A stretch of DNA of 54,480 bases, filler included, from Bipalium vagum (taxonomy: Eukaryota): the NCBI GenBank assembly GCA_037834085.1. It is 3 parts of 3 records of this genome, joined end to end, with 100 filler letters (N's around TTAATTAATTAA, not from the genome) between each part and the next. Parts side by side here need not be neighbours in the genome. Positions count along the whole stretch, not along the records: positions 35,598 to 54,480 come from JBBMKC010016586.1; 2 more parts are not named here. The stretch is one strand, 5' to 3'. The translations under genes and the position numbers were made by a program. The notes beneath the pieces were generated by a model, which worked only from the letters and a program-made list of their open reading frames with translations, was not told where the DNA came from and did no database searches. This document shows positions 36,580 to 36,915 of this stretch, piece after piece (positions within the stretch are counted from its first letter, which is position 1; every line of letters starts with the position of its first letter).

Positions 36580-36915
36580 TATTATTTGTTTTTCTTGTGA
36601 ATAAAATGATATTATGTTAATCTGATTTTATTTCACGATTTTCTTTATTTACTATATTTCAACCTAAAGCATTTGCATAATTGTTTGTCTTTTTAAAAGT
36701 TTTTTTACCAACACCTTTCATTCTTTAATCAAATAACTTTTTTTAGTTTTATTATCTTTTACTTCATAAGCATAAGTTTTACATTTCTTTAAAGAAATTA
36801 AAATTTTCATCTTTAAATTGAAATATTCATCTCCTAAATAATTTGATAGTTTATTTTCTATATTCTTAAGAGTTTCATTTTTATCTAAAATAAATTCAAT
36901 AAAGAAAGAATCAGT
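36580..36915 (-). pseudogene. Polinton/Maverick-type protein-primed DNA polymerase B, C-terminal remnant (C-extein)
   Basis: TDSFFIE..LGDEY..KILISLKKCKTYAYEVKD, then (shifted frame) MKGVGKKTF..NYANAL..EIKSD*HNI. The order DTDS, DE, K-x-Y-A-Y, KGV, I-[RK]-S-x-x-H matches the pPolB C-terminus. Confidence 0.7.

Follow-up and report, generated by a model that had tools for sequence, protein, structure and literature searches.

The window, as we call the whole 54,480-nucleotide stretch of Bipalium vagum DNA analysed here, contains an endogenous protein-primed DNA polymerase (pPolB) of the Polinton/adintovirus type, now dead, with a pol-c intein in motif C. The decayed C-extein lies on the minus strand at 36589..36916, running from the TDS of motif C to IKSD and HNI, and was recognised by translation, by DNA identity to sister copies (~65-79% over this part) and by its place in an extein tree. 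It is broken by a frameshift near 36721-36724 and by in-frame stops. All the motifs that a sequence-only reading had quoted from this stretch are present, on the minus strand at 36589-36916 and in two frames: LGDEY, ILISLK and KTYAY share one, and MKGVGKK, IKSD and HNI lie in the next, after the frameshift. That reading missed the deletion of the class-typical DDKR terminus, which sister copies retain at the end of their C-terminus. Post-polymerase sequence of the sister copies follows at 36426..36584 (minus strand; 85-87% identity to L014, L023, L026 and L095), and about 350 bases of the sisters, including the polymerase end, are absent between 36584 and 36589.

The Thr that follows the intein begins at 36916, and the 3' part of the intein occupies 36917..37236 on the minus strand, where the second LAGLIDADG motif, in decayed form, is accompanied by block F (VYDIET) and block G (FPLIVK/N). 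This part carries a frameshift at ~36918-36921, several stops and one internal deletion; it matches the intact P0322 intein by tblastn (E 1.4e-11) and intein-bearing sister copies at the DNA level. A DNA transposon bounded by terminal inverted repeats and flanked on either side by a duplicated TA is inserted in the intein nuclease domain at 37237..37955. It belongs to a high-copy family in this genome, which we take to be pogo/Tigger-like; the piece that was searched against Pfam gave no match. Beyond the transposon, and also missed by the sequence-only reading, a decayed segment of the intein at 37956..38037 (minus strand) contains the first LAGLIDADG motif; it has 78-89% DNA identity to intein-bearing sisters and a tblastn match to the L074 intein frame (E 3e-7). 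Upstream of this segment no intein N-terminus or N-extein was found within the window. The copy has no N-terminal intein blocks, both of its LAGLIDADG motifs are decayed, and its defects comprise frameshifts, stops, two deletions and the loss of the N-terminal half. Across intein and extein its DNA identity to sister copies is ~65-86%, and a Pfam search of the window pieces alone returned no relevant family.

Elsewhere in the window, an uninterrupted 701-codon frame with arginine-methyltransferase domains, presumably PRMT7-like, lies at 25930-28035 on the minus strand, and a Kelch-repeat exon of an ordinary host gene at 34787-35263 on the same strand. An ordinary multi-exon host gene with weak WD40 matches, which we assume to be WDR81-like, extends over 40123-53436 (minus strand). 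A broken mariner-type transposase (PF01359) is found at 9053-10159 (plus strand), and a high-copy short repeat, 95-99% identical over many contigs, at 35598-35740. Runs of N flanking a 12-base linker (19096-19195 and 35498-35597) join separate contigs, so neighbours across these joins are not proven neighbours.

The sequence-only reading held that the host polymerase looks protein-primed, of Polinton type, and that the pattern of RNA-primed enzymes is missing. KKRY, RRD and LEYEK indeed occur in none of the three minus frames of 36401-36920, and the window extein lacks the KKxY and RRD that follow motif C in RNA-primed PolBs, whether of NCLDV or of Pol delta. With X placed at its breaks, the window C-extein scores 14.6 bits with a profile of pPolB C-exteins, for which the best of 200 shuffles reaches 10.3 and composition bias is 16.7, but 0.0 bits with the RNA-primed counterpart. 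Taken alone, the decayed piece is weak and suggestive only; we assign it to the pPolBs because its sister copies support that assignment. Two sisters in which the intein end and the whole C-extein share one open frame score 83.2 and 81.8 bits with the pPolB profile versus 2.7 and 6.0 with the RNA-primed one, which yields 0.0-9.0 bits over the window read-through and five sisters. The window extein, placed in a 61-row quick tree where it fills 22% of the columns, is nested among Polinton and adintovirus pPolB clades (SH-aLRT 97, 100 and 100), well apart from 14 RNA-primed exteins. It does not group with NCLDV PolB, the placement that would have pointed to an endogenous giant-virus fragment.

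Fold comparisons agree, favouring the phi29/adenovirus/Polinton type over RNA-primed enzymes. P0002, an intein-free relative, matches PF03175 above the cut-off, and the proteins homologous to it are pPolBs that often contain an EndoVII insert and include those of bidnavirus-like viruses. Its AlphaFold model (pLDDT 89) finds phi29 polymerase as the best PDB match in Foldseek, with E 1.6e-12 versus 4.4e-5 for the best RNA-primed enzyme, and aligns to it structurally over ~520 columns, which would imply the TPR1/TPR2 subdomains, terminal-protein domain and priming on a protein; in BFVD, bidnavirus, adintovirus and MELD polymerases come best (TM 0.74-0.81). A PDB sequence search with P0002 returned nothing significant. 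Strong bidnavirus-like polymerase BLASTP matches mark the Alpha class of Starrett et al. 2021 (PMC8502044), and judged by such matches the pPolB family of the window is Alpha-like. A Beta label, considered for this family since P0322 scored higher on PF03175, was reversed by the same mark (PMC8502044). The P0322 extein itself has no BLASTP match to the Alpha-like class.

The window copy is one of many. In the B. vagum assembly (441 Mb in 272,664 contigs), a sister piece has at least 151 matches, with 150 of 629 candidates scored. Filled copies read KIHFGD/SVTEDTP at one junction (the slash here and below marking the insertion point) and LIVKN/TDS at the other, empty copies read KIHFGD/TDS, and 24-base flanks are identical in the two; as in a pol-c allele, the insertion is precise and in frame at GD/TDS, and empty alleles exist. 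Junction patterns allowing two mismatches found 69 empty sites, 39 N-junctions and 33 C-junctions in the genome (reversed-pattern controls 0, 0 and 2, respectively), so roughly one close copy in three carries the intein. Among the B. vagum loci retrieved, none holds an uninterrupted intein frame.

We judge it extremely unlikely that the locus is a fragment of an endogenous giant-virus PolB, contaminating DNA, or an assembly artefact that joins an NCLDV intein to a Polinton. The weak pPolB signal of the window piece alone and the fragmented assembly would give such a reading some room, but the 33-39 filled junctions are separate and each carries its own mutations, and both junctions occur on single contigs, ~1,045-1,065 bases apart (e.g. 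C195867, C197159 and C200939). The window contig runs gap-free into a multi-exon host gene, a host transposon splits the intein, and intact intein-pPolB fusions come from other ENA, Logan and JGI sources.

A DNA tree of the C-extein, for which 55 of 70 copies were kept and 15 dropped for lack of downstream polymerase sequence, resolves two subfamilies, each holding filled and empty copies. The filled or empty state changes 8 times on this tree, at least 4 of these forced by starred branches, versus 17.5 with shuffled labels; filled copies are thus still clustered. The window copy belongs to the minor subfamily. Compared with the major subfamily, its intein is 81% and its extein 75% identical, and the intein is the higher in 16 of 17 pairs, which are mutually non-independent; within the major subfamily the order is reversed (intein 88, extein 91). 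This pattern fits homing between subfamilies, and recombination or precise loss would give similar ones.

Adjoining intein-bearing copies are penton-like (L083), PLA2-like (L074) and weakly capsid-like pieces (L054, E 0.003; L019, E 8e-4), and these match IMG/VR elements with an integrase, an A32 ATPase, a double-jelly-roll capsid and a pPolB. The genome has 26 matches to the A32 ATPase and 151 to the Polinton-type rve integrase, and contig C218821 carries pPolB and integrase together. On no single contig are all Polinton genes united, nor was a complete element with termini seen; contigs are short and copies fragmented. Such neighbours, together with the bidnavirus-like BLASTP matches and the A32 ATPase and rve integrase in the genome, are shared with Alpha-type adintovirus/Polinton pPolBs. 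The main text of Starrett et al. (PMC8502044) does not mention an intein. The 44 matches to Wnt in the genome identify the host as an animal.

The same intein is found in five intact pPolBs from other sources (P0024, P0309, P0311, P0312 and P0322). Ser1, blocks B and F, the terminal Asn, Thr+1 and the two LAGLIDADG motifs are retained in every one, and these five inteins have 37-43% identity to that of Mimivirus. The residues expected for splicing, Ser/Cys1, the block-B TxxH (read directly from the sequences), block F, the terminal Asn and a +1 nucleophile, are present in the intact members and in sister pieces. Both LAGLIDADG motifs are likewise found in the intact members and in L017, with PF14528 above the cut-off; PF14890 is above it in P0312 and below it in three others scanned. 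The pPolB family also occurs with an EndoVII/HNH insert (PF02945). The P0312 cluster has 136 members and is multicopy, with 15 members listed, on contigs up to 1 Mb. Among 14 compared, seven are intact with the intein, four are full-length without it and three are shorter pieces; exteins of filled and empty alleles (1537 aa versus ~1191 aa) are 97-98% identical. A pattern scan found a further intein-bearing pPolB, in two frames, close to this cluster in sequence (L060, 2-4189). An Atlas search gave leads, with P0312 best at 0.84, and placed the penton-like piece with unnamed clusters. In the extein tree, carriers are scattered among non-carriers, making the intein patchy among pPolBs, and none of 22 related IMG/VR loci has it.

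It had been proposed from the sequence alone that intein and extein differ in ancestry, and separate phylogenies of the two prove incongruent: the extein goes with pPolBs, and the intein belongs to a family that occupies the same motif-C site in Mimivirus-like RNA-primed PolBs. A search with a 174-aa intein piece listed 150 relatives; a pPolB extein occurs in none of these, and nearly all listed relatives with readable junctions have the GD/TDS site in polymerases mostly showing KKxY/RRD. The pPolB intein is absent from this 50%-cluster listing, probably because intein-free members represent the clusters. A word-index search of the 174-aa piece against longer proteins, single-protein searches for related loci in viral contigs, and a comparison of the piece with phage records gave no match. 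With the P0024 intein as query, the best 120 of 359 matches comprise 111 PF00136 PolBs, including that of Mimivirus, four type II topoisomerases and five pPolBs; the Pol delta/zeta tail PF14260 is in none of these 120.

The pPolB inteins form one clade with 100/100 support under LG+G4 (59 of 250 rows, picked from the neighbourhood of a prior FastTree) and under LG+C20 PMSF (42 rows). Rooted on topoisomerase inteins, this clade falls inside a 97/95 group with 22 RNA-primed inteins, adjoining the Mimivirus clade. Most exteins of the other group members score 500-830 bits against the Mimivirus extein, and the Pol delta cysteine tail is in none of those tested. Named sources are Mimivirus, one GVMAG contig and one 'viral metagenome' entry, and other 'giant virus' labels derive from extein similarity. 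The sister node of the pPolB clade is a polytomy, with no single giant-virus sister.

On the direction of transfer, for which the sequence-only reading had an intein moving between an NCLDV PolB and a pPolB, every tree nests the pPolB inteins within RNA-primed inteins of viral type. Forcing the RNA-primed inteins to be monophyletic gives an AU p of 0.040 under the mixture model and 0.198 under LG+G4. The direction from giant virus to pPolB is therefore favoured by these trees, not proven; the nesting is not firmly required, since RNA-primed monophyly is rejected marginally and under the mixture model only. The donor may instead not have been a giant virus, or the direction may have been reversed, with the pPolB clade sister to the RNA-primed inteins, of cellular or other mobile PolB origin, or itself the source of giant-virus inteins. 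We consider this unlikely. The LG+G4 value would allow it, as would the presence of the same intein family in short PolBs and an archaeal MAG, and Pol delta, alpha and zeta inteins are described in Anaeramoeba and Chloropicon (PMC10710043), which were left out of our trees; against it stand the nesting in every tree, the mixture-model rejection, and the great excess of RNA-primed carriers over pPolBs, 111 to 5 in the best 120 of 359, with the Pol delta tail domain in none.

The intein family is found in other company as well. It lies in type II topoisomerases at D/TD (P0394, P0410, P0411 and P0414, our outgroup), and by sequence has crossed into this non-homologous protein. Short, intein-bearing PolBs with little similarity to Mimivirus PolB (P0132, P0170, P0349 and P0345; exteins of ~850-915 aa where complete) form a further set, of which P0345 is named as a Heimdallarchaeaceae MAG protein. 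The nesting of P0132, P0170 and P0349 among giant-virus-type inteins suggests another jump between polymerase classes. Judged from these three and the archaeal MAG protein, other donors exist. L058 (837-5960) has a giant-virus PolB intein on a very long branch, which suggests a decaying nuclease; it was omitted from the 59-row tree. A back-transfer through L058, which FastTree had put inside the pPolB clade, was rejected as long-branch attraction, the mixture model returning it to NCLDV relatives with 99/98 support.

Within the pPolB clade, the inteins of B. vagum and P0322 are sisters (99/95). A topology that keeps the same-class inteins together and leaves P0322 out is rejected (p 0.020), in a test framed after the similarity had been seen. 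On these trees, transfer between virus classes seems to have happened once, long ago, and the intein of the window copy was most likely acquired from another Polinton, not directly from a giant virus. The earlier proposal of homing from class to class thus stands as to transfer between classes; for this lineage it does not, the nearest intein relatives sitting in other pPolBs.

We propose, with good confidence, a model where this pPolB copy carries a LAGLIDADG intein of a family that likely made a single entry into pPolBs, out of a Mimivirus-like giant virus, before probably spreading by homing between Polintons. An intact intein would be removed by post-translational splicing through Ser1, the block-B TxxH, the terminal Asn and Thr+1, which would re-form the catalytic DTDS. 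Empty alleles would be cut by the nuclease of the intein and would acquire the intein during repair. Motif C is the single stretch that RNA-primed and protein-primed PolBs share closely, and a nuclease aimed at it could have crossed from one class to the other. Between the empty site of this genome and the Mimivirus site given by Ogata et al., 5 of 18 bases differ, four of them at third codon positions, which would make a plausible bridge between the classes.

The first jump may have taken place in a co-infected cell. A route without co-infection would have the intein pass from its giant-virus donor into a pPolB resident in a giant-virus genome, and from there into free Polintons. Consistent with it, a Harvfovirus polymerase matches the pPolB model (rank 38 in BFVD), one GVMAG-labelled contig (L119) encodes the pPolB class of the window, and Starrett et al. 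report megavirus matches for Beta PolBs (PMC8502044). L119, however, has no intein and may be a mis-binned Polinton-like virus, and no intein-bearing pPolB was seen in a giant-virus contig. We regard this route as quite unlikely, and it departs from the model proposed above in route only.

The closest known system is the pol-c intein of Mimivirus PolB, which has the same motif-C site GD/TDS, Ser1, terminal Asn and Thr+1, and two LAGLIDADG motifs (Ogata et al. 2005, PMC549080). The pPolB inteins are 337-354 aa long versus 351 aa in Mimivirus, with 36-43% identity. Judged by sequence tests, they would work in the same way as the archaeal and Mimivirus pol-c inteins. Unlike in Mimivirus, the host enzyme here is protein-primed and belongs to Polintons, not Nucleocytoviricota, and the inteins form a multicopy filled and empty family in an animal nuclear genome. 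Ogata et al. judged direct homing between distant PolBs implausible (PMC549080).

Nuclease domains within Polinton pPolBs have been described before, as HNH/VSR insertions (Jeong et al. 2023, PMC10748475; Krupovic et al. 2024, PMC11161782). Those lie at other positions, and no splicing domain is described for them in the portions of these two papers considered; here there is a full intein, with Hint blocks and LAGLIDADG motifs, in a catalytic motif. Krupovic et al. suggest intein invasions behind the nuclease inserts (PMC11161782). In Klebsormidium, Tetrabaena and a labyrinthulid, two algae and a protist, nuclear scaffolds encode viral-like DNA polymerases with inteins, which are similarly virus-derived and nuclear (Gallot-Lavallee et al. 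2023, PMC10710043). The main text of that study does not contain the words Polinton, animal or metazoa. Green et al. list the inteins of viruses under NCLDV families and unclassified viruses, and those of nuclear genomes under fungi, algae and protists (PMC5784728). Neither Starrett et al. nor Jeong et al. (PMC10748475) nor a 2026 Polinton-like virus survey uses the word intein in its main text, and the literature searched, outside which lie subscription journals, Repbase, InBase and supplements, held no report of a pPolB intein.

On balance we favour a broader history, in which the intein passed from giant viruses (Nucleocytoviricota) to Polintons (Preplasmiviricota), between two pPolB classes dissimilar by BLAST, and into an animal germline, where it homed among copies, with intact and probably mobile copies in another eukaryote genome. 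If this is so, protein-primed polymerases would have their first true intein family, and a homing intein would be recorded for the first time in the nuclear genome of an animal. The eukaryotic inteins covered by surveys come from fungi, algae, protists and NCLDVs (PMC5784728, PMC10710043); a complete intein would now extend this range to another virus phylum and to the genome of an animal. It would also offer a concrete case for the suggested invasion of pPolBs by inteins (PMC11161782). The intact filled and empty alleles of the P0312 cluster, at 97-98% identity, make target-site tolerance directly testable. Homing requires donor and recipient DNA in one cell, and the intein would therefore be a dated trace of contact between a giant virus and a Polinton, a contact that bears on whether Polintons live like virophages.
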